From: Nitrospinota bacterium
GTDB taxonomy: Bacteria; Nitrospinota; Nitrospinia; Nitrospinales; VA-1
DNA: 64,000 nucleotides
Reading direction: 5' to 3'
NCBI GenBank assembly: GCA_038108555.1
Contig: JAYNIA010000001.1
Span: forward strand, 139,505 to 203,504
This document shows, in pieces, positions 8,326 through 44,517 of this stretch. How positions within the stretch are numbered: position 1 is the stretch's first letter; every line of letters starts with the position of its first letter. The position numbers were made by a program, and so were the translations under genes. The notes under the pieces are model-generated. The model did no database searches, was not told the DNA's origin, and saw only the letters and a list, made by a program, of their open reading frames with translations.

Positions 8326-10158
8326 ATGAATGAAAGAACCCCATTAGACTTTAAAGATAATCCAGCCGACGCAAAACCACCAGAATCTGGCTGCCAGGAA
8401 GATAATCTGGCGACGGAGTCTTACCACCTGTTACTGGAAAAATTAAAGCCTATCAAGGAATTGATTCTTATTGCCCCGATGCAGGTTCCAAATTCTGTTT
8501 TCGACATTGAGGTGGCAAAGAGATCGGGGTATTTCAATTATCCTCCCGTGGGCCTTCTATATATTGCCTCTGCCGCGAAAAAAGTGGACCCCAGCATCAA
8601 AATTCAGCTGATAGACCTGAATTTGGAAATGCTTCAAAATGCAAACGGGGGAAATTTTTCATATGACTTTTGGAAATCGAGAATTTCAAAGGTTTTAAAA
8701 AATGCAGACTCCCCCTATGTCGGCATAACATGTATGTTTGATGTCAACAAGGAAACTTTTATCGACATATCCCAACATATTAAAAGCGAGTTCCCGGATA
8801 TTCCAGTTTTAGCTGGAGGAGTTCAAGCCACTTATGATTATGAAGAATTATTAGATAAACATGGCTTCGACCTTATTTTTAGAAAAGAAAGTGAAATTCA
8901 GTTTTCCAACTTCATTACCAACATAAACCAGAAAGACTTCTCTCATGAACCCAAGGGAGTGGCTTTTACCCATAAGCAAAAAATAATAACTTTAGGAGAA
9001 CCAGAACAGGACACCCCTGTAGAATTTGATATACGCGATTCCTATTCGCTGATACCTATAGAGGATTATTATAAAGTAGGAGGCTTGGCCGTTTTTTCCA
9101 GATATAACGGGATTAATAAACCTTTTGCAACGGTACTTAGCAATCGAGGATGCAGGGCCTATTGTACTTTTTGCACGGTACGCGATTTCAACGGCAAGGG
9201 CATACGTGCTCGAACAGTCGAAAGCGTTATCAACGAACTAAAATTCTTATGGGAAAAAGGAATTAGACAAATTGACTGGCTGGATGATGATTTTTTATGG
9301 GATAAGGAACGAACCCTTCATCTTTTAAAAAGAATGACAGAGGAAGTTCCCGGTATGGAATGGATCAGCAATAATGGACTTATTGCTGCAGCAATTAATG
9401 AGGAAATAATGGAATGGATGGTTCGTTCCGGACTTAAAGCGGTAAAAGTGGGTATCGAATCTGGAAATGACGCCATGCTTAAAAAAATTCTGAAACCCAC
9501 AAGTAAAAGAAAATTATTAATGTCTTCAGAGCTTTTTAAAAAATATCCCGAGGTTTTTTACAGCGGAAACTTTATTCTTGGTTTCCCCAACGAAACATTT
9601 CAGGAAATGATGGACTCTTATAATTTCGCACGCAAATTGGACTGGGACTGGGCCAGCTTTTATATTTGCCAACCCCTGGTTGGTACTGCCATGTATTCCA
9701 TCTTCAAAGATCTTGGCGAGGAAAGTGATAGCAATAAAGCTCTAAACCCAGGCCGATTAGCCCAACGCGGAGAAATGGGAGTAAAGTTCAATGGTGATTC
9801 GGACCCCATATTACGTGGAAGAGATATTTTTGACCTCCCTCCCGATATCGTCCCCTCTCGAGACCAATTAAACGAAATTTGGTTTACTTTCAATTTTTTA
9901 GCTAATTTTCTCAATAACCGTAATTGTCGTTCAGGCGGAAATATAGAAAAACTTATCAGATGGTATGAATCCATTTTCGCCGGCTACCCACATGACGCCT
10001 CTATGGCAGCGGCCCTGGCTCATGGATACCGTTTGAGCAATCAGGTTAAAACCGCACAATCCTATCAAAAAACTTTTGAAACCATCTTGGAAAAATCCAA
10101 TTATTGGCAATCACGAGTGAAGCAATTTCCAGAACTTCTGGAAATGGCCGGTCTCTAA
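8326..10158 (+). CDS. B12-binding-domain radical SAM enzyme
   Basis: PPVGLLYIA and GGVQAT N-terminal domain; RGCRAYCTFC; GIESG; FILGFPNET. Confidence 0.9.
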   Translation: MNERTPLDFKDNPADAKPPESGCQEDNLATESYHLLLEKLKPIKELILIAPMQVPNSVFDIEVAKRSGYFNYPPVGLLYIASAAKKVDPSIKIQLIDLNLEMLQNANGGNFSYDFWKSRISKVLKNADSPYVGITCMFDVNKETFIDISQHIKSEFPDIPVLAGGVQATYDYEELLDKHGFDLIFRKESEIQFSNFITNINQKDFSHEPKGVAFTHKQKIITLGEPEQDTPVEFDIRDSYSLIPIEDYYKVGGLAVFSRYNGINKPFATVLSNRGCRAYCTFCTVRDFNGKGIRARTVESVINELKFLWEKGIRQIDWLDDDFLWDKERTLHLLKRMTEEVPGMEWISNNGLIAAAINEEIMEWMVRSGLKAVKVGIESGNDAMLKKILKPTSKRKLLMSSELFKKYPEVFYSGNFILGFPNETFQEMMDSYNFARKLDWDWASFYICQPLVGTAMYSIFKDLGEESDSNKALNPGRLAQRGEMGVKFNGDSDPILRGRDIFDLPPDIVPSRDQLNEIWFTFNFLANFLNNRNCRSGGNIEKLIRWYESIFAGYPHDASMAAALAHGYRLSNQVKTAQSYQKTFETILEKSNYWQSRVKQFPELLEMAGL

Positions 10159-14232: not shown

Positions 14233-14856
14233 CTAATTGGACAGACGTCCATGAAATACTCCTACCTTGGCCAGGAAATCCGTCACAATCTCTATAGATT
14301 CTTCCAGGGTTTGACTGCCGGTATTAATCAAAATTTCCGGATTCTCAGGTTCCTCGTAAGGAGCACTGATCCCGGTAAAATTTAAAATCTCCCCGGCACG
14401 AGCCCGCTTATACATCCCTTTTACATCTCTGGATTCACAAATCTCCAAAGGACAATTACAATAAATTTCAAAAAAATCTTCAGGAGCAAACATCTCCCTT
14501 AATTTTTTCCTCGCGTCTTTAAAAGGAGAGATATAAGCCGCAAGAGTAATAATCCCTGTTTCAATAAACAATTTAGACACTTCACCAATTCGCCTCAAAT
14601 TTTCGTTTCGATCTTCATCTGAAAATCCAAGATCCTTGCAAAGCCCGTGTCTGACATTATCCCCATCAAGAACCAGGGTTTTGTAACCCAACTGGTGAAG
14701 CCTTTCTTCTACCGCATGAGCCAGGGTGGATTTTCCCGATCCCGACAATCCTGTAAACCAAAGTAAAGCAGATCTATGCTTTCCTTGCTGCTCGCGACGT
14801 TCTCGAGTAACCGTTGCTCGGTGGCGAACAATTTTATCTGATGTATGTTTTTCCAA
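14233..14856 (-). CDS. cysC: Adenylyl-sulfate (APS) kinase
   Basis: WFTGLSGSGKST, LDGDNVRHGL, FTGISAPYEEP. Confidence 0.95.
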   Translation of the reverse strand: MEKHTSDKIVRHRATVTRERREQQGKHRSALLWFTGLSGSGKSTLAHAVEERLHQLGYKTLVLDGDNVRHGLCKDLGFSDEDRNENLRRIGEVSKLFIETGIITLAAYISPFKDARKKLREMFAPEDFFEIYCNCPLEICESRDVKGMYKRARAGEILNFTGISAPYEEPENPEILINTGSQTLEESIEIVTDFLAKVGVFHGRLSN

Positions 14857-36274: not shown

Positions 36275-37603
36275 ATGAAAAGCTTGCTTCACCGACTTCA
36301 AAAAGTAAAAATTCCCCTGCATTTTTTTTTAATATTTCTCCTCTTTAATTTCATTTTTATAGTTCTGTTTGCGGGATTGGTTCGTCATGTTGTTAAAGGC
36401 GGGCCGCTAAAAAACACGTTTTTGGGTGAAGTCGCCTATGAAATCGCTTCAACCACTCATAACACCAAAAAAATTTTTAAAGGGGGAGATTTTTCATTAC
36501 ACGAAGGGAAACATAAAGACAAACCATTGGGTTTTTCATTTTTTTCAAAGGACTCTGGGAGTCTAAAAGGATATATTTTGTTTCCAAAGTATTTTCTTAA
36601 CGAAAACCGAGCTAAAGTACAATTAATTCGCATTAAAGACCAAATAATTCTATACCAATGGAACCCCGATGTTGATGAAATAAACTCAAAATCTAAAATT
36701 AACCGAAATCTAATCAACCTGGAAAGAGATTTCAATAAGAACCGGTACCAATTTCAACATCCAATACTTCTGGAAGAGGGAGGATTAGTATTCCATTCAT
36801 TTTCTCCATTAGTTAGAGTCGACAAATGTTCCAATCTGGTTTGGCAGGTAGACGAATATTTTCATCACTCCATTGAACAAGACCATGAAAATAATATCTG
36901 GTCTCCTACTCGAAAAATTCCAGGGAAGTTTAGTGAATTAAGTGAACAATATGAGGATGATGAGATTACCAAAGTTCAATTATCAGATGGAAAAATAATT
37001 TTTCAGAAATCTGTCACCGAAATTCTTGTTGAAAACAATATGCGAGATTTGGTCACAAATGCTTTTGTGGGCATTTCTCCTATACACCTAAACGATATTC
37101 AACCGGTACTCGAAGATACAAAATTTTGGAAAAGAGGCGATGTTTTTCTATCCCTTCGCGATTTATCCATGGTTATGCTTTATCGGCCCTCAACCAACAA
37201 AGTGATTTGGTACAAATTGGGGCCTTGGAGACACCAGCACGACGTTGATATAATCAATAATAGCACTATTGGAATTTTTGATAATAATGTATCCTTGAAA
37301 CAGGATACCTCCAAAACCCGAATTGTATATTACGATTTCGAAACGAATGAAATAACCTACCCCTACAAAAAGTTGCTTGAAAAACATAAAATTAACTCGA
37401 AAACCGAAGGCTTGTTCTCCCGATTGGGAAATGATGATATTTTTATTAATGAGACACGACATTCAAGATTAATAAGAGGAAATAAAGCGGGCGAAATAAA
37501 ATGGCAATATATTTGGGATGCCCAGATATTCTGGACGAGGTTTTTAAATAACGAAAAATTTCAACCCATTGTTTCAAAATTAGCGAATTCACAATGCAAA
37601 TAA
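36275..37603 (+). CDS. Membrane-anchored arylsulfotransferase (ASST-like)
   Basis: N-terminal TM helix; FHHSI, IHLNDIQP, SLRDLS, QHDVD motifs of ASST-type beta-propellers. Confidence 0.75.
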   Translation: MKSLLHRLQKVKIPLHFFLIFLLFNFIFIVLFAGLVRHVVKGGPLKNTFLGEVAYEIASTTHNTKKIFKGGDFSLHEGKHKDKPLGFSFFSKDSGSLKGYILFPKYFLNENRAKVQLIRIKDQIILYQWNPDVDEINSKSKINRNLINLERDFNKNRYQFQHPILLEEGGLVFHSFSPLVRVDKCSNLVWQVDEYFHHSIEQDHENNIWSPTRKIPGKFSELSEQYEDDEITKVQLSDGKIIFQKSVTEILVENNMRDLVTNAFVGISPIHLNDIQPVLEDTKFWKRGDVFLSLRDLSMVMLYRPSTNKVIWYKLGPWRHQHDVDIINNSTIGIFDNNVSLKQDTSKTRIVYYDFETNEITYPYKKLLEKHKINSKTEGLFSRLGNDDIFINETRHSRLIRGNKAGEIKWQYIWDAQIFWTRFLNNEKFQPIVSKLANSQCK

Positions 37604-37803
37604 TTCTTTTTTTGTTTTACTTATCCTTAATCGTTTTCCTTCCTACTGAAGCCGTGGCTTATATTGGGCCCGGAATGGGTGCAGGAACTATTGCAGTCGT
37701 ATTGGGTTTTATCGGGTCAATTCTTTTGGCTATTTTTGCGGTCCTCTATTATCCAATCAAAAGAATTGTAAAGAAATTTAAAAGCAAGAATAAAGCGAAC
37801 TAG
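37594..37803 (+). CDS. Small membrane protein with AYIGPG motif
   Basis: 69 aa: hydrophobic signal-like N-terminus ending AVA, YIGPGMGAG, second TM, basic tail; overlaps ASST stop. Confidence 0.75.
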   Translation: MQIILFLFYLSLIVFLPTEAVAYIGPGMGAGTIAVVLGFIGSILLAIFAVLYYPIKRIVKKFKSKNKAN

Positions 37804-37807
37804 TTAT

Positions 37808-38173
37808 TTGGATATTTTTTGGCTTCTTATCCCTCTAATAATTTGCGTAGAAATTGCAAATAGAACCAACCTTGGAAATACTTTAAGCCTATTTCTGGAT
37901 TTACTGGGAAAAATTAGGAATATTTTTAGCTACAAAAAGGCTTCCGATAGATGGAAAGAAAAAGCCCTGCTTGGTTATTCTTTTAGATTCTTAAACCTAA
38001 ACTTTCAATTGCTTATTAAATTATTCTTAATTTTCTCACCTTTTTTCTTGATACTGCCAATTGACAGGATATTTGGAATAGCGTTGACCAAAGCACTAAT
38101 TGATCCCTATTTTTTAATGATCAGTATTCCTATTGTTATTGCCTATACAAAAATTAAAAAACGCTTTTCATGA
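37808..38173 (+). CDS. Small multi-pass membrane protein
   Basis: 121 aa with about 3 hydrophobic segments and an SDRWKEK motif; overlaps next gene (ATGA). Confidence 0.7.
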   Translation: MDIFWLLIPLIICVEIANRTNLGNTLSLFLDLLGKIRNIFSYKKASDRWKEKALLGYSFRFLNLNFQLLIKLFLIFSPFFLILPIDRIFGIALTKALIDPYFLMISIPIVIAYTKIKKRFS

Positions 38174-39189
38174 TTAACAGTCAATATTCTTTTTTGGAAA
38201 AATGCTTACATAGATTTGCTTTGGATTCCCCCTGGTTGCAGTCCCTATTATACGATTTGGAAAAACAGTTTTTTCTGGATAAGGCCGCTGTGAATAGGAC
38301 ACAGCATTTATTTATTACAGGATTGGCGCGTAGCGGAACGACTTCAGTATTAAATTTATTTTATAGTGGAGGCACATTCGCTTCATTAGCTTACGAAGAT
38401 ATGCCCTTCATACTTTCACCAAACTTATGGAGCAAAGTAAGAGGGAAATCCGCTCAACTAGAAAAAGTGGAGCGTGCCCATGGGGATGAAATTTTTATAA
38501 ACCTACAAAGTCCAGAAGCTTTTGAGGAAGTATTTTGGAAATATATTCTCCAAAACAACTATATCCATTCCCATCATTTGGAAAAGCATACAGTATCTGA
38601 AAAGCATGTTCAGGAATTTGAAAATTTTATCCAACTGGTTTTAAAACTTCGGAACAGAAAAAATTACCTGTCCAAGAACAACAACAACATCCTGCGCCTC
38701 AATTCTCTCTCCAAGCAAATGGAGGATTCTATCTTTCTCATAATTTTCAGGGACCCGCTTAATCACGCACGTTCCTTACTAAATACACATAATAAATTTA
38801 TTCCTTTTCAGGAAGAAGATGATTTCGTTAGAGAATATATGAATTTTATCGGACATAATGAATTTGGGTTAGACCATAAAAGAATGTTATTCACGGGAGA
38901 TTTTAAGAATAATGATGCCATGGCGCTGGATTATTGGCTTGAGCTTTGGTGTCATATATACGGATTTCTGGAAAAAAACTGCACCAGCAAAAACGTTCGG
39001 TTTGTCTGCTATGAAGATCTCTGCGAAAACCCGGAGTCTTATCTAAGGAAAAAAGTTTTAGAAGATTTATTTTTAGACAATTTAAATTTCGAATCGCTAA
39101 AGAACAAAAACAAAAAAACCGACTCCGGTGGTCACATGCATTCTGCCCTAGCTTTCGAAATATACAATAGAATGCGCAAATTGGATTAG
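38170..39189 (+). CDS. PAPS-dependent sulfotransferase
   Basis: 5'-PSB loop ITGLARSGTT; 3'-PB IFRDPLNHARS; VCYEDL. Confidence 0.85.
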   Translation: MINSQYSFLEKCLHRFALDSPWLQSLLYDLEKQFFLDKAAVNRTQHLFITGLARSGTTSVLNLFYSGGTFASLAYEDMPFILSPNLWSKVRGKSAQLEKVERAHGDEIFINLQSPEAFEEVFWKYILQNNYIHSHHLEKHTVSEKHVQEFENFIQLVLKLRNRKNYLSKNNNNILRLNSLSKQMEDSIFLIIFRDPLNHARSLLNTHNKFIPFQEEDDFVREYMNFIGHNEFGLDHKRMLFTGDFKNNDAMALDYWLELWCHIYGFLEKNCTSKNVRFVCYEDLCENPESYLRKKVLEDLFLDNLNFESLKNKNKKTDSGGHMHSALAFEIYNRMRKLD

Positions 39190-39429: not shown

Positions 39430-41397
39430 TTGAAAATGGATTCTAAAGAGAACCCAAAGATTTTAATTGTAACCACTCCCATCAGGCCGATTCCTACAGA
39501 GTTTCCACCGCTGGGAAGCCTTTCAATTATCAGCTCTTTAAATAAAGCAGGGTTTAGCAATACTGAATTTTACAACATAGACCTCTTGCGGCCGCATTAC
39601 CAGGAAGTGCTCGACCATATACAGGAGAGCAAGCCTGACATTCTTGGAATAAGCGCTGTTGTATCTACGGCTTACGAATATTCAAAAAGGTTATCTTTAG
39701 ATATAAAAAAACTCCTTCCGCAAACAACGATAATCTTAGGCGGAAACATGGGGGCCTCAGCCGAAATCATTCTTAAAAAAACAGGAGTGGATTTCGTATG
39801 CACCGGCGAGGGTGAGCAGGTAATGGTGGAGTTTATTTCCAATTGGTTAACTGCGAAATCGAAACGGGATTTTGAATCTTTAAAGGGTTGGTCATTCCTA
39901 AATGAAGATGGGGAAATGGTTCTAACTCCTTATGCGGACTCACTTCCCGCTGAAGATATTTACGATATTGACTGGTCCATTCTTGAAGACCTGGACCAAA
40001 TGGAATATTTTATTTCTTCCCATGAAACTGCCATTAAGGATTACTCCTTTTCCCACGACACAAGGTCGTATGAGCCTCACCGAAGCGATAAAACCATGGC
40101 TCGAATACCAACCACCAAAGGTTGTGTGGCCCGTTGCACATTTTGCCATAGGTGGGACAAGGGAATTCGGTTCATTCCCGTTCCAGTTGTAATGGATCGC
40201 ATCGATTACTTTATCGAAAAATTTAACATTGGATTCATTCGTGTCGTCGATGAAAATTTTGGATCTAATAAAAAATGGCTTCTGGAATTTAAAGAGGAAA
40301 TGAAAAAACGGGACTTGCTATGGAGCGTTGGTGGCATGCGTGTCAGCACGATTACTCCGGAAATGATCAAAATGATGAAAGAAGCAGGATGCACCTCCAT
40401 ATTCTATGGAATGGAGACAGGCAGTAAAAAGATGCTTGAAATTATGGAAAAGGTTACAACAATTGAACAAAATAAAAACACCGTAAAATGGATGGCCGAA
40501 AATGACATGTTCACCATCGTACAACTCATTGTAGGTATGCCCGGAGAAACCCAGGAAACTGTTTCGGAAACCACTGAATTTGTAAATTATTTTGTGGAGC
40601 AATCCCCAAAAACAGACCCCAATGCTTTAAGCATTAATTTCGCCCAAGCACTTCCCGGAACCCCTCTTTATGAAGTCGCCCGAGGAAAAGGCCTGATTGG
40701 TCAGTCCATTGATGAAGAGGAAAAGTATCTCATTGCCATCTCTGACAGGGACGCTCGAGATGGTGAGACAACTGTAAACTTTACAGATTACCCTAAAATT
40801 TATCTGGAAAAATGGAAGTTTGATTTAAGCAACTCTGCACGCAACGCTTATATAAAAAAATGGGGGAAAAAGAATTATTACGATATCGTTCTCAATTCAC
40901 ATCGCTTTAAAGGGTTGGATCAGAAAAAAAATGAGGATTCAGGTTATTTTGCAGAACCTGCAAGAGCTCAGGAAAATAGCCTCGGCCTTACAGAAAAAAA
41001 GAAAATCGAACTTGCCAGCGATGTTGTTTCCGACACAGTCCATGATATAAAGGATGAGATAAGAATAACGGACAATAAAATACCTTCCCTGTTTTCTCTT
41101 TTGAAAAAAAAGAAAATTAGTCAAATAGCAACTTTTTATCCTCAATTGTTTTGGTCAACACGCAAATTTTCTTTAGTTTTTATTTTCCTGAACGAATGGA
41201 GAAAAAGTGGAACCATTTACGCCATAAAAATGGCTGCAAGCGCAATTAAATGGAAGCTGGATCAAATGTTCATCAAAATATCTATTAAACCGGATGACGA
41301 ACAAGTATTTTCTTTAAGAAAAGCTCTTCGCAAAAAGATGTTTCCTGTAATTTCTACGGATAATCCGGTTATGGAAAAATTACGCCTGGGAAGGTAA
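39430..41397 (+). CDS. B12-binding-domain radical SAM enzyme
   Basis: PPLGSL, ISAVVST, GEGE, KGCVARCTFC, DENF, GMETG, GMPGET. ATG alternative at 39436. Confidence 0.92.
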   Translation: MKMDSKENPKILIVTTPIRPIPTEFPPLGSLSIISSLNKAGFSNTEFYNIDLLRPHYQEVLDHIQESKPDILGISAVVSTAYEYSKRLSLDIKKLLPQTTIILGGNMGASAEIILKKTGVDFVCTGEGEQVMVEFISNWLTAKSKRDFESLKGWSFLNEDGEMVLTPYADSLPAEDIYDIDWSILEDLDQMEYFISSHETAIKDYSFSHDTRSYEPHRSDKTMARIPTTKGCVARCTFCHRWDKGIRFIPVPVVMDRIDYFIEKFNIGFIRVVDENFGSNKKWLLEFKEEMKKRDLLWSVGGMRVSTITPEMIKMMKEAGCTSIFYGMETGSKKMLEIMEKVTTIEQNKNTVKWMAENDMFTIVQLIVGMPGETQETVSETTEFVNYFVEQSPKTDPNALSINFAQALPGTPLYEVARGKGLIGQSIDEEEKYLIAISDRDARDGETTVNFTDYPKIYLEKWKFDLSNSARNAYIKKWGKKNYYDIVLNSHRFKGLDQKKNEDSGYFAEPARAQENSLGLTEKKKIELASDVVSDTVHDIKDEIRITDNKIPSLFSLLKKKKISQIATFYPQLFWSTRKFSLVFIFLNEWRKSGTIYAIKMAASAIKWKLDQMFIKISIKPDDEQVFSLRKALRKKMFPVISTDNPVMEKLRLGR

Positions 41398-41419: not shown

Positions 41420-42331
41420 ATGACATTTAACAGGCTAGCCTCCGAAATTTCTGAAAAGTGTAATGAAGCTATCTTAATAAGCGGTAGCGCCAGAAGTGGC
41501 ACAACCATACTCTCAAAGATCCTCCATTCCTTCAAAAATGTTGAGTTGGCATACGAACCCCCTGTTCTGTTTTCCCTGTTCGCCTTACTTCCTGAGCTTG
41601 AAGAAAAGCAGTGGCGGTTGCTATATGAAACTTTTCTTTATGAAGAGTTTTTTATAAATGCGCTTTCCGGCAGGTCTATTAACTGCAACCGCAAAGATGA
41701 TAGCTCGGTTTATCGGGTAAAAAATGAATCAGAGATAGAAAAAAGATTAAATCAATACATAAGGAAACCTGATTCGGAGATATTAGGGCAATCAAGTTGG
41801 ATTGCTTACAAAATTCCCGACGTTGTAAAATATTTACCCAAATTAAAAAAATTATATCCCAAAACAAAATTAATAATAATGACCCGGGATCCAGTGGAAA
41901 CTTTTCATTCCCTACGTGAAAAGGCTTGGTTCAGTGATGCCTCTCTCAAAAATAAAAATGAAATTTGGCCCAACCGCATCATTAAGGGATTTCGAATCCC
42001 CTTTTGGGTTGACCAGAAAGATGAAAGGGCATGGGTGGAAATGGACGAACTCCATCGCATTGCCTATTACTATCACCAAGTGAGCCATGAATTAAAAGAA
42101 CTCCAGGACTATATTCAAATAAATTATGATGATTTGGTGAACGACCCTTATAAAACGATCACTGGCCTGGCAGAAAAACTCGGTTTAAGTTTTGGGGAAA
42201 AAACAGAAGAAATTCTCAAAACAGTATCAAGAACTAAAAAGGACAGAGACCCCGATATTTTAAAAAAATTGTCACCTGAAATTCAATCTCAGGTTCAGCA
42301 TTATGCTGAGTTGAGCACAATGACCACTTAA
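41420..42331 (+). CDS. PAPS-dependent sulfotransferase
   Basis: ISGSARSGTT, YEPP, MTRDPVETFHS, INYDDLVNDP. Confidence 0.85.
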   Translation: MTFNRLASEISEKCNEAILISGSARSGTTILSKILHSFKNVELAYEPPVLFSLFALLPELEEKQWRLLYETFLYEEFFINALSGRSINCNRKDDSSVYRVKNESEIEKRLNQYIRKPDSEILGQSSWIAYKIPDVVKYLPKLKKLYPKTKLIIMTRDPVETFHSLREKAWFSDASLKNKNEIWPNRIIKGFRIPFWVDQKDERAWVEMDELHRIAYYYHQVSHELKELQDYIQINYDDLVNDPYKTITGLAEKLGLSFGEKTEEILKTVSRTKKDRDPDILKKLSPEIQSQVQHYAELSTMTT

Positions 42332-42381: not shown

Positions 42382-44517
42382 TTAATTTGCAAGCGTATAC
42401 TTTGTCATTGCCGCCTGTGTATTGTTAAAAATCCCTCTTATGGGCGAACCATTTTTACTTATCTTTCGAAACTGGCTTTCAAGGCTGGTAATTCTTGTCA
42501 CAATTTTTGACAATGCATTGACATCGGTTCCATATCGAGAGAACTGATCATTTCGCGTCCTAAGCTGTTCTTCATCATATTCAAATTGAAAGGAAATTGG
42601 AGATTCTACTCGAAAATCCCTTAGAGGCTTTTCATGATCGCTATCTAACCAGTCCAAAACATCAAAATTGAGATTAACCGAGACAGGGGATAGATCGGCT
42701 TCCACATCAAAAAGGCCTGCCAGTTTATTTCTGCAAAATTTTGCTATTTCACCGATTTCGATTTCCGACTGTTCTAGAGGGGAATTTTCTTCTTTTTTCT
42801 CCCTGCAAATAGCATTTAATTGCTCGCTAATAAAATCTATCCATTCCGAAGATGCAAAAACAACGTTTAGTGCCTTGTATTTATAAATTAAATTTCCTCC
42901 GACTTTTCCTGATTTTAAAAGGTGATAATTCTTTTCTTGCTGATAAAATTCAACTAGCTCTTTCTCTGAATTCCACAATTCTCCTTTGGTTTCTCCTAAA
43001 AAGTTTTCTAAATTTCGCTGGACGGAATTGGGAGCACTTTTTATATTGTCATATATTCTTCTTAAAAATTCTGTTCGCCCGACTCCCAGATTTTCCGCAT
43101 AAATGAAAAACTCTTCGAAAGCTCGTCCATTGATTAATGATTCAATCATTAAAGCGAAACCACGCAAATTGAGATAATCGTCAAACGACATATCTTTGGT
43201 TTGAATGCCAACCTCTTCAAAATCAAAAATTTTCTTTCCATCATATTCTCCGAAATTCAGGGGAACAATCCGAAATCGCCCTTTAATATCGAACTCTTTT
43301 CGGTAATGGGTATCTTTGAATTCTGTTCCATTCAATAACATCAAGGTATATATAGTGATTGAAGTTACTCCAGAATTTATCAAGTCATCAATGCCACGCA
43401 AAAAGGTTTCTCTAGTTTCTCCTGGAAGAGGAAGAATTATTTCAGCCTTGGTGGATCGTCCGTTTTGCTGCAAACTCTTATTTACTTCAATATAATCTTC
43501 CAGATTTATATTTGACCTTTTAATTTTTTCCAGGACATTGTCATTCATGGATTGCACTGACATATTAACGGCAAACATATTTCCCAGAATTCCGGTAATT
43601 TCAACTACCCGTTTTTTATTGTTCTTCCCGGTAGTAGCCATTATTTGAAGAGGCCATCCATACTTTTCCTTGCTTTCTTTTAAAGCCAGACAAACTTCTC
43701 GATCACGGGGATACATTCCAAAGTTTGTATCGGCTATGTGTAAATTCGTGATCCCAAGTTCTTGGGCTCGAGGTCCAATAAATCGAATTTCCTCATGGAT
43801 CCGGTCGGTCGAAAAAGTATTGGTTTTTTGGAAATGATCGTTTCCGGTATGACAAAAGGAACATCTAAAAGGGCATCCTCGGTTAGTTTCAATAAAAGGT
43901 GTTAATTTCCCGTCAAAAAATACATCCATCATGCCAGTTAAGTAAGGGGAGGGTATTTCATCCAAATTTTTTATTCTTTCCAGAACATTTCCCTTTACTA
44001 ATTTAGGGAAAGCTGTAGGTTCTTTCTTTGAACTTAGGAATGCGGTCCCATCAATCGGCGAATCAAAAATCCTCGCCTTATCCATATCGCTGTCGAAAAC
44101 TCGCTGGATAATATTTTGAAGTGCTTTTTCACCTTCAAATAAAACATGGATGTCAGTATTAGGACGGGCAATTAAAAATTCTTTTTGCTGTTCGTCTTCG
44201 TGCGGGAAATTGGTTCCTCCCTGTACAGTTATGACATCGGGATTTGCTTTTTTCGCAATTCCCAGGACATGTTCTGACAGATTACTGTTCCAGGAATAAT
44301 TACTGCATGCAATAACATCAGGTGGGTTTTTCTTTATTTCCTCTATAACCCGCTTTGGATATTTAAAAAGAGAGAGGTTTATCTGATCCCCAAAAATCTT
44401 TTTTACATACGACCCCACAAACCCGATATTGACAGGCATGGTATCAGAAACCAGAATAATCGTGTCATAGGTTAAATCGCATAATATAATATTCAAAGAT
44501 TTCTTTAAATTTATCAT
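42382..44517 (-). CDS. B12-binding-domain radical SAM enzyme
   Basis: PVNIGFV, SNYSWN, GGTN, FEGE, ETNRGCPFRCSFC, ADTNFGM, LPLPGET. Confidence 0.92.
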   Translation of the reverse strand: MINLKKSLNIILCDLTYDTIILVSDTMPVNIGFVGSYVKKIFGDQINLSLFKYPKRVIEEIKKNPPDVIACSNYSWNSNLSEHVLGIAKKANPDVITVQGGTNFPHEDEQQKEFLIARPNTDIHVLFEGEKALQNIIQRVFDSDMDKARIFDSPIDGTAFLSSKKEPTAFPKLVKGNVLERIKNLDEIPSPYLTGMMDVFFDGKLTPFIETNRGCPFRCSFCHTGNDHFQKTNTFSTDRIHEEIRFIGPRAQELGITNLHIADTNFGMYPRDREVCLALKESKEKYGWPLQIMATTGKNNKKRVVEITGILGNMFAVNMSVQSMNDNVLEKIKRSNINLEDYIEVNKSLQQNGRSTKAEIILPLPGETRETFLRGIDDLINSGVTSITIYTLMLLNGTEFKDTHYRKEFDIKGRFRIVPLNFGEYDGKKIFDFEEVGIQTKDMSFDDYLNLRGFALMIESLINGRAFEEFFIYAENLGVGRTEFLRRIYDNIKSAPNSVQRNLENFLGETKGELWNSEKELVEFYQQEKNYHLLKSGKVGGNLIYKYKALNVVFASSEWIDFISEQLNAICREKKEENSPLEQSEIEIGEIAKFCRNKLAGLFDVEADLSPVSVNLNFDVLDWLDSDHEKPLRDFRVESPISFQFEYDEEQLRTRNDQFSRYGTDVNALSKIVTRITSLESQFRKISKNGSPIRGIFNNTQAAMTKYTLAN

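Follow-up and report, generated by a model that had tools for sequence, protein, structure and literature searches.

3'-Phosphoadenosine 5'-phosphosulfate (PAPS) is made in the cytoplasm. One of the closest described systems to the one reported here is that of caprazamycin, in which Cpz8, a sulfotransferase that depends on PAPS, and a PAPS-independent arylsulfate sulfotransferase (ASST; Cpz4) act via a sulfated intermediate, a triketide pyrone serving as shuttle (PMC6731281, PMC13426309; here and below, articles are cited for the parts of their text that were available). A second point of comparison is given by the DltX and PatA systems, where an MBOAT protein loads the outer tyrosine of a membrane micro-protein (PMC12148441). 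A 2026 review notes that tyrosine and Tyr-peptides can serve ASSTs as substrates, and that for most bacterial ASSTs neither the natural substrates nor the physiological roles are known (PMC13426309); the available parts of two articles on sulfated capsules of marine bacteria mention no arylsulfotransferase (PMC11766843, PMC11641403). In this context, we analyzed a 64,000-nucleotide stretch of a Nitrospinota genome (hereafter the window), which holds a cassette of four genes for an ASST, a 69-residue membrane protein (the micro-protein), a 121-residue membrane protein and a PAPS-dependent sulfotransferase (the PAPS enzyme).

As in the Cpz8/Cpz6/Cpz4 relay, a PAPS enzyme and an ASST are encoded together in this cassette; here, in contrast, the two enzymes are predicted to lie on opposite faces of the membrane, with two membrane proteins between them, and no shuttle-making gene recurs among the flanking ORFs scanned. 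We propose, with a probability of roughly 0.55, that sulfation proceeds in two steps split across the inner membrane, the micro-protein being the carrier that relays sulfate, by way of a tyrosine, to the outer enzyme and from there to an acceptor. In the literature searched, with motif searches included and with most subscription papers and supplements outside its scope, no description of such a cassette was found; on this reading, it is the peptide carrying the group that would have to pass through the membrane.

The four-gene cassette and its distribution

The features discussed below are the following:

36275..37603, plus strand: ASST gene, 442 aa (PF14269, Arylsulfotran_2)
37238..37240, plus strand: codon of ASST His322, invariant in 67 sequences; putative counterpart of E. 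coli ASST His436
37594..37803, plus strand: micro-protein gene, 69 aa; 10-bp overlap with the ASST gene
37660..37662, plus strand: codon of Tyr23, the proposed sulfate carrier and predicted mature N-terminus
37750..37752, plus strand: codon of Tyr53 (YYP), on the cytoplasmic side; conserved, replaceable
37808..38173, plus strand: membrane-protein gene, 121 aa; TTG start, 4-bp gap after the micro-protein gene
38170..39189, plus strand: PAPS-dependent sulfotransferase gene, 339 aa; 4-bp ATGA overlap with the 121-aa gene
14233..14856, minus strand: CysC adenylyl-sulfate kinase (PAPS supply), outside the cassette; TIGR00455, 263.7 bits against a cut-off of 138.7

The original prediction of four tightly coupled genes was reproduced in full, with the open reading frames (ORFs), the overlaps and the 4-bp gap all in place on the plus strand, and each gene is single-copy in the source genome. 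None of the four proteins matched NCBIfam, the micro-protein and the 121-aa protein matched no Pfam family, and a promoter and terminator scan returned 10 promoter-like sites, against 12.5 expected by chance.

The arrangement is far beyond chance and is a conserved unit across phyla. A search with the micro-protein gave 87 loci, some of them near-duplicates, made up of seven from GTDB (Alpha-, Beta- and Gammaproteobacteria and Bacteroidota) and the best 80 of 512 confirmed metagenome loci. All four genes were present in 37 of the 44 loci with enough flank, in agreement with the co-occurrence that had been predicted, which extends over several phyla. Taken singly, the ASST gene lay directly upstream of the micro-protein gene in 59 of 69 loci (those with at least 400 bp of flank), a membrane gene stood beside it in 69 of 73 assessable loci, and the PAPS enzyme was found in 56 of 59. 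Moreover, the reciprocal set, comprising 25 loci reached from the PAPS enzyme after removal of two seed genomes and two weak hits, showed an intact micro-protein gene with its tyrosine in 22 loci and an ASST in 20; in G193 the micro-protein gene is present elsewhere in the genome, bringing the genomes that have it to 23 of 25. The membrane gene was of the window type in 14 of these loci and of a different type in eight, and both types were together in none.

The PAPS subfamily was detected in 21 of 401 Alphaproteobacteria and in 8 of 301 Bacteroidota, six of the latter strongly. The cassette-type ASST family occurs in 32 of the same 401 genomes, including 20 of the 21 with the PAPS enzyme (Fisher p 1.6e-24, an overstated value, as related genomes are not independent). 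The sole exception, G239, keeps a micro-protein gene remnant that has lost its tyrosine head and contains an in-frame stop (L157:6900-7100). Closer to the source, no member of the subfamily was detected in the genus's 16 other genomes, and among 120 genomes of the phylum only three gave strong scores; these are the very three with a YIGPG-type micro-protein gene and an adjacent PF14269 gene. Thus, the distribution of the cassette is patchy.

Variations of the cassette were also seen. The ASST is unlinked in G122, G271, G361 and G375, and G120 has five PF14269 matches, with the micro-protein gene, membrane gene and PAPS enzyme staying together, as expected of one donor module feeding acceptor-specific enzymes. 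In two small genomes (L159:4274-4495, L165:7842-8063), the micro-protein gene, ASST and PAPS enzyme are accompanied by neither membrane gene nearby, and the arms are divergent, reading AYLALGP and AYLGLGP, respectively. An ASST and micro-protein gene without the downstream pair were observed at L069:7243-7755, followed by a DsbB gene, and at L045:2827-3728, followed by transposase-like ORFs.

Two sulfotransferases and a tyrosine arm

The two sulfotransferases are predicted to act on opposite sides of the membrane. The first gene had been described as encoding a membrane-anchored ASST-like enzyme, and its product matches PF14269 accordingly (132 bits against a cut-off of 27, E 3.7e-38) and has a single hydrophobic segment, at residues 16-31, as an N-terminal anchor; its catalytic domain is predicted to be extracytoplasmic. 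C185 and a C-terminal cysteine are both present in 44 of 67 sequences, both missing in 21 and discordant in two, and this joint presence or absence in 65 of 67 fits a disulfide outside the cytoplasm. All of the same 67 sequences keep H198, H271, N273 and H322, and at least 90% have R295. The E. coli residue set is H252/H356/N358/R374/H436 (PMC13426309), and the window's His/His/Asn/Arg/His set appears to map onto it by motif; the profile match to the E. coli structure 3ELQ begins at residue 433 (E 0.0017), and His322 is probably the equivalent of the sulfated His436. The enzyme shares with E. coli AssT and with PF14269 ASSTs the beta-propeller ASST signature and this residue set. It differs from AssT in its shorter chain (442 aa, against 571), its membrane anchor and its genetic linkage to a module that is a candidate maker of the donor.

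The PAPS-type assignment of the fourth gene likewise stood, with a match to PF13469 (Sulfotransfer_3) of 40.3 bits against a cut-off of 27 (E 5.4e-10), within which the enzyme forms a distinct subfamily. R54, G56, T58, R194 and S202 are invariant among 65 sequences and GLARSGTT is conserved; we take GLARSGTT and R194/S202 to be the 5'- and 3'-phosphate motifs for PAPS. No hydrophobic segment was found in the enzyme, and a protein of the 121-aa type is fused in frame ahead of it in seven loci and in a 117-member ESM Atlas cluster, which together place it at the cytoplasmic face. Its best match in the PDB was human TPST1 (E 2.1e-12), the matches being confined to core motifs. This resemblance, and a small tyrosine-bearing protein encoded alongside, recall TPST1/2 and RaxST/RaxX (RaxST being compared by description only); in contrast to them, the tyrosine here has no acidic context, and the putative substrate is membrane-anchored, with an ASST alongside.

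The 69-aa protein reads as described previously, EAVA-YIGPGMGAG-TM-YYPIKR, where TM is the transmembrane segment. An alignment of 90 sequences gives it a signal-peptide-like leader, a YIGPGMGAG arm, one TM helix and a basic cytoplasmic tail, with Ala occupying -1 in 82 of them and -3 in 65; in three sequences the leader is short, of only 5-12 residues. In the TM helix, positions 31, 34, 38, 41/42, 46 and 49 are Gly, Ala or Ser in 84-100% of 150 sequences, forming a one-sided stripe with a period peak at 100 degrees. Tyr23 was conserved as predicted for AYxGPG proteins, in 150 of 150 best representatives and in 90 of 90 locus sequences, an invariance that is partly built in, as these sets were chosen with a profile containing the tyrosine; the loci reached through the PAPS enzyme, a cleaner test, also carry it. 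Across 14 hand-picked members of all classes, Tyr23 and one glycine are the only invariant positions. Tyr53 is more variable, being Tyr in 144 and Phe in 6 of the 150, and Tyr in 82, Trp in 5 and Leu in 2 of the 90.

The family amounts to 2,770 clusters at 50% identity (E ≤ 0.001). No fusion of the micro-protein to an ASST or a PAPS enzyme was found among 18 longer hits (8,000 candidates scored), which is weak evidence. At L076:16-1887 the micro-protein continues, in the same frame, into an ORF of 623 aa whose sequence is unrelated, either a real fusion or a lost stop.

The analogy with DltX drawn in the original prediction would hold for the proposed chemistry alone. The cassette shares with the DltX/PatA MBOAT-SGNH shuttles a membrane micro-protein with an invariant extracytoplasmic tyrosine, standing beside a cytoplasm-fed transferase and an outer one; however, DltX has a C-terminal FXYXXF motif, is loaded by MBOAT and does not carry sulfate, the group proposed for the N-terminal YxGPG arm (PMC12148441). 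The FXYXXF motif is absent here, the invariant tyrosine lying at the predicted mature N-terminus and the C-terminus being a variable basic tail. Neither MBOAT nor SGNH is encoded in the cassette, and among 151 of the 196 nearest flanking ORFs, scanned over 51 other loci at E ≤ 1e-12, there were one SGNH and no MBOAT.

The membrane partner, the proposed relay and its rivals

The 121-aa protein is modeled with TM1, a basic helical hairpin, TM2 and TM3 (pLDDT 93.9; three hydrophobic segments), and the model, the hydropathy and charge profile and the C-terminal enzyme fusion agree on a C-in layout like that of the Oxa1 superfamily. It would tether the PAPS enzyme, and is a candidate translocation aid. 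Sequence search of the PDB, Pfam on 10 relatives and the ESM Atlas gave nothing significant; Foldseek placed 7tut_8 at rank 9 (E 1.8), no Oxa1-family entry was among the best 50 matches of the VIA wide search, and a match to the TMCO1-translocon chain 6w6l_6 (Z 7.7) spans only 59 hairpin residues.

One clade of the PAPS enzyme, a sister clade defined from a quick tree, has a different protein in the same operon slot, between the micro-protein gene and the enzyme. Its profile matches the archaeal protein MJ0480/Ylp1 (5C8J) at E 1.3e-5 with 8 sequences and 5.6e-6 with 101, the only PDB match below E 0.5. Its model (pLDDT 88.9) has its top fold match in 7tut_8, a multipass-translocon chain that we take to be TMCO1 (Z 9.9, rmsd 3.7, 136 aligned; Foldseek probability 0.98, TM-score 0.62, E 0.57), followed lower down by the Get1/Get2 entry 8cr1_C (Z 7.3) and YidC 3wo7_A (Z 7.0). 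Z values below 13 are weak for helical bundles, and it is the sequence match that carries the kinship. The gene is a relative of the Oxa1/YidC-family insertase Ylp1/DUF106, as judged from these profiles, and would be a candidate for insertase or translocase activity. Pfam did not recognise this protein, nor that of the phosphodiesterase class described below, as DUF106. Among the 401 Alphaproteobacteria no stand-alone copy was found; the gene occurs only in eight cassette genomes, which were its seeds. Proteins of this type were seen in Mesorhizobium, Chelativorans and Phyllobacterium (P0247, P0254, P0256, P0271, P0273, P0284), and M. loti has been reported to use KpsS in making a sulfated polysaccharide (PMC11625862).

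A hydrophilic groove exposed to lipid is a feature of Oxa1-family proteins, and the translocated regions that they handle are small (PMC5868721). Compared with the described superfamily (archaeal Ylp1/DUF106 MJ0480, TMCO1, Get1 and YidC; PMC5868721), the sister-clade gene is alike in sequence and predicted fold; unlike the known members, which are general insertion factors, the genes here belong to single bacterial cassettes, and the 121-aa type is not demonstrably homologous. The Ylp1-like partner is a candidate for the missing membrane-crossing step.

From the linkage, the conservation, the catalytic residues, the topology as predicted and the kinship of the alternative partner with insertases, we infer the following chemistry. 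The sulfotransferase in the cytoplasm, which the 121-aa protein would keep at the membrane, would use PAPS, as its motifs and topology suggest, and would sulfate Tyr23 of the micro-protein. The sulfotyrosine arm would then reach the outer face, the weakest step, either by a single crossing while each new micro-protein inserts or by repeated crossing, the short Gly-Pro-rich arm passing through a groove shared with the small membrane protein. Finally, as expected from ASST chemistry, the outer ASST would move the sulfuryl group from the sulfotyrosine donor onto His322 and hand it to an acceptor outside the cytoplasm, for which an envelope glycan or glycoconjugate is the likeliest candidate.

The surroundings bear on both ends of this scheme. 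The window is a large glycan-biosynthesis region; a surface glycan is the likely acceptor, and it may be that of the locus itself. The original prediction had placed cysC in the same locus, and the gene is real and lies in the same glycan region; it is not next to the cassette, being about 21 kb away on the minus strand. CysD-like and CysN/C genes are on contig C27 of the source genome, where no Sat-type ATP sulfurylase (PF01747) was found, the CysD/CysN type being present instead. Elsewhere, an APS kinase lies near the cassette in 2 of the 51 loci. Two genes downstream of the cassette, a second PAPS-type sulfotransferase (41420-42331, plus strand; PF13469, E 1.2e-18) does not belong to the cassette subfamily; it may act in the cytoplasm, sulfating the glycan directly. 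The region also holds NeuB-, PseF- and WbuX/WbuZ-like genes and three B12-binding radical SAM genes (8326-10158, 39430-41397, 42382-44517), none of the latter at a specific NCBIfam cut-off.

Several observations weigh against a relay through Tyr23. As the predictions put Tyr23 outside and the PAPS enzyme inside, the relay calls for a crossing step that has no precedent, and by our estimate the 9-residue arm is barely long enough for it. The 121-aa protein scored only 1-3% against the sister-clade protein in hhalign and showed no tie to the Oxa1 family, and 3 of the 25 PAPS-enzyme loci have neither membrane gene. The substrate tyrosine of eukaryotic TPST sites stands in an acidic context, and an acidic residue lies no more than five positions from Tyr23 in just 13 of 90 micro-proteins. 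Furthermore, the uncharacterised 2zq5 ranks between TPST1 and TPST2, and the TPST match may reflect sparse sampling of the PDB. Clear glycan-biosynthesis families flank the cassette in only 10 of the 51 loci, and the conservation counts come from profile-selected, partly near-duplicate sequences. Against strict dependence, G780 has the PAPS enzyme and no micro-protein gene match in its genome; an ASST-N-terminus-like stretch stands there in frame ahead of the membrane gene (L172:2559-3236 / L194), and one deletion possibly took out the ASST and micro-protein genes together. Similarly, 12 of the 32 ASST-positive alphaproteobacterial genomes lack the PAPS enzyme, a count that also lends itself, with the unlinked ASSTs, to a view of two sulfotransferases acting independently on the same polymer and merely co-regulated. 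We consider this very improbable, since an ASST requires an aryl-sulfate donor and the PAPS subfamily is nearly always accompanied by the micro-protein gene (23 of 25 genomes) or the ASST (20 of 21), with joint decay in G239.

The main rival of the Tyr23 relay is a small-molecule shuttle, a possible though doubtful reading in which the PAPS enzyme would sulfate a small aryl compound or lipid able to cross the membrane and the micro-protein would be structural, its N-terminal tyrosine docking on the ASST; the cassette would then be of the Cpz8/Cpz4 kind. That pair is a direct precedent for a small shuttle between a PAPS enzyme and an ASST (PMC6731281), the small-residue stripe fits a tightly packed subunit, and Tyr23 is without the acidic TPST-type context; yet no recurring gene for the synthesis or transport of a shuttle was found among the 151 flanking ORFs of 51 loci, where a type III PKS, expected for a pyrone, was also missing (no whole-genome search was made for it). 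Moreover, the same tyrosine arm beside phosphodiesterase- and methyltransferase-type pairs would be left unexplained, likewise the insertase relative. It is unlikely that the sulfated micro-protein is itself the end product, a membrane-anchored sulfopeptide acting as a RaxX-like signal or regulator from which the ASST edits or removes sulfate. In the available description RaxST sulfates a tyrosine of the small protein RaxX, Tyr-peptides serve as ASST acceptors (PMC13426309) and most loci lack obvious glycan genes; however, the TM helix and basic tail keep the peptide in the inner membrane, no exporter or peptidase recurred among the scanned flanking ORFs, and the presence of several ASST paralogues in a genome agrees better with there being several acceptors. 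Hardly probable at all is the sulfation and onward relay of Tyr53, which shares the PAPS enzyme's side of the membrane and is conserved in 144 of 150 sequences of the window's clade, but is swapped for Phe, Trp or Leu in intact cassettes and has no chemical route outward.

A wider family of tyrosine arms

The arm is found in other settings within the same phylum. In one class, it forms the N-terminus of fusions with phosphodiesterase-fold (PF01663) enzymes; each of the 18 longer database hits of the micro-protein is a PF01663 fusion beginning Y[IV]GPG. The membrane gene of this class matches MJ0480 (E 8e-8) and the sister-clade protein (97.4%), and five of its six occurrences in 120 genomes share a contig with an arm fusion. 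Together with the sister-clade findings, this shows the tyrosine arm in the company of an Oxa1-like gene in two chemistries, and an arm fused to a 700-aa enzyme would favor a reusable arm over a single-use precursor. Loci L177 (4876-11638), L178, L179 and L180 show the fusion with more PF01663 enzymes and a Ylp1/DUF106-like gene, some of them also with a small sulfotransferase or sulfatase-fold gene.

In a second class, YLDPG or YIDPG micro-protein genes have sulfatase-fold membrane proteins as neighbours, along with a 465-aa protein that has a methyltransferase domain or else a PF01663 enzyme. At L183:5140-6761, L185, L186, L248 and related loci, a YLDPG micro-protein gene and the 465-aa protein usually come with a sulfatase-fold membrane protein, and these loci are a possible phospho or methyl-phosphate version of the relay. 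The 465-aa protein has a C-terminal SAM methyltransferase and, in its N-terminal half, a D-x4-N...FID motif; a kinase fold read from this motif was unsupported by Pfam or the PDB.

Taken further, and tentatively, the YxGPG/YxDPG peptide may be a general reusable carrier for anionic groups. A cytoplasmic enzyme would load its N-terminal tyrosine, with sulfate here and, in the classes linked to a phosphodiesterase or a methyltransferase, with a phospho-type group; the arm, once loaded, would cross the inner membrane by way of a dedicated protein with an Oxa1-like groove, and an outer ping-pong transferase would unload it. Such a peptide would be the protein counterpart of lipid carriers, would supply the missing natural donor for membrane-anchored ASSTs and would give Oxa1-family proteins a role in the transport of metabolite groups.

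In brief, if the sulfotyrosine relay of the cassette is true, sulfotyrosine on a membrane micro-protein would be the natural donor for a large branch of ASSTs, and the tyrosine-shuttle principle of DltX and PatA acylation would be extended to sulfate with no MBOAT tunnel involved. Some soil bacteria that can be cultured have the sister clade, and the relay could be tested there. The relay would also be a route to glycan sulfation outside the cytoplasm.

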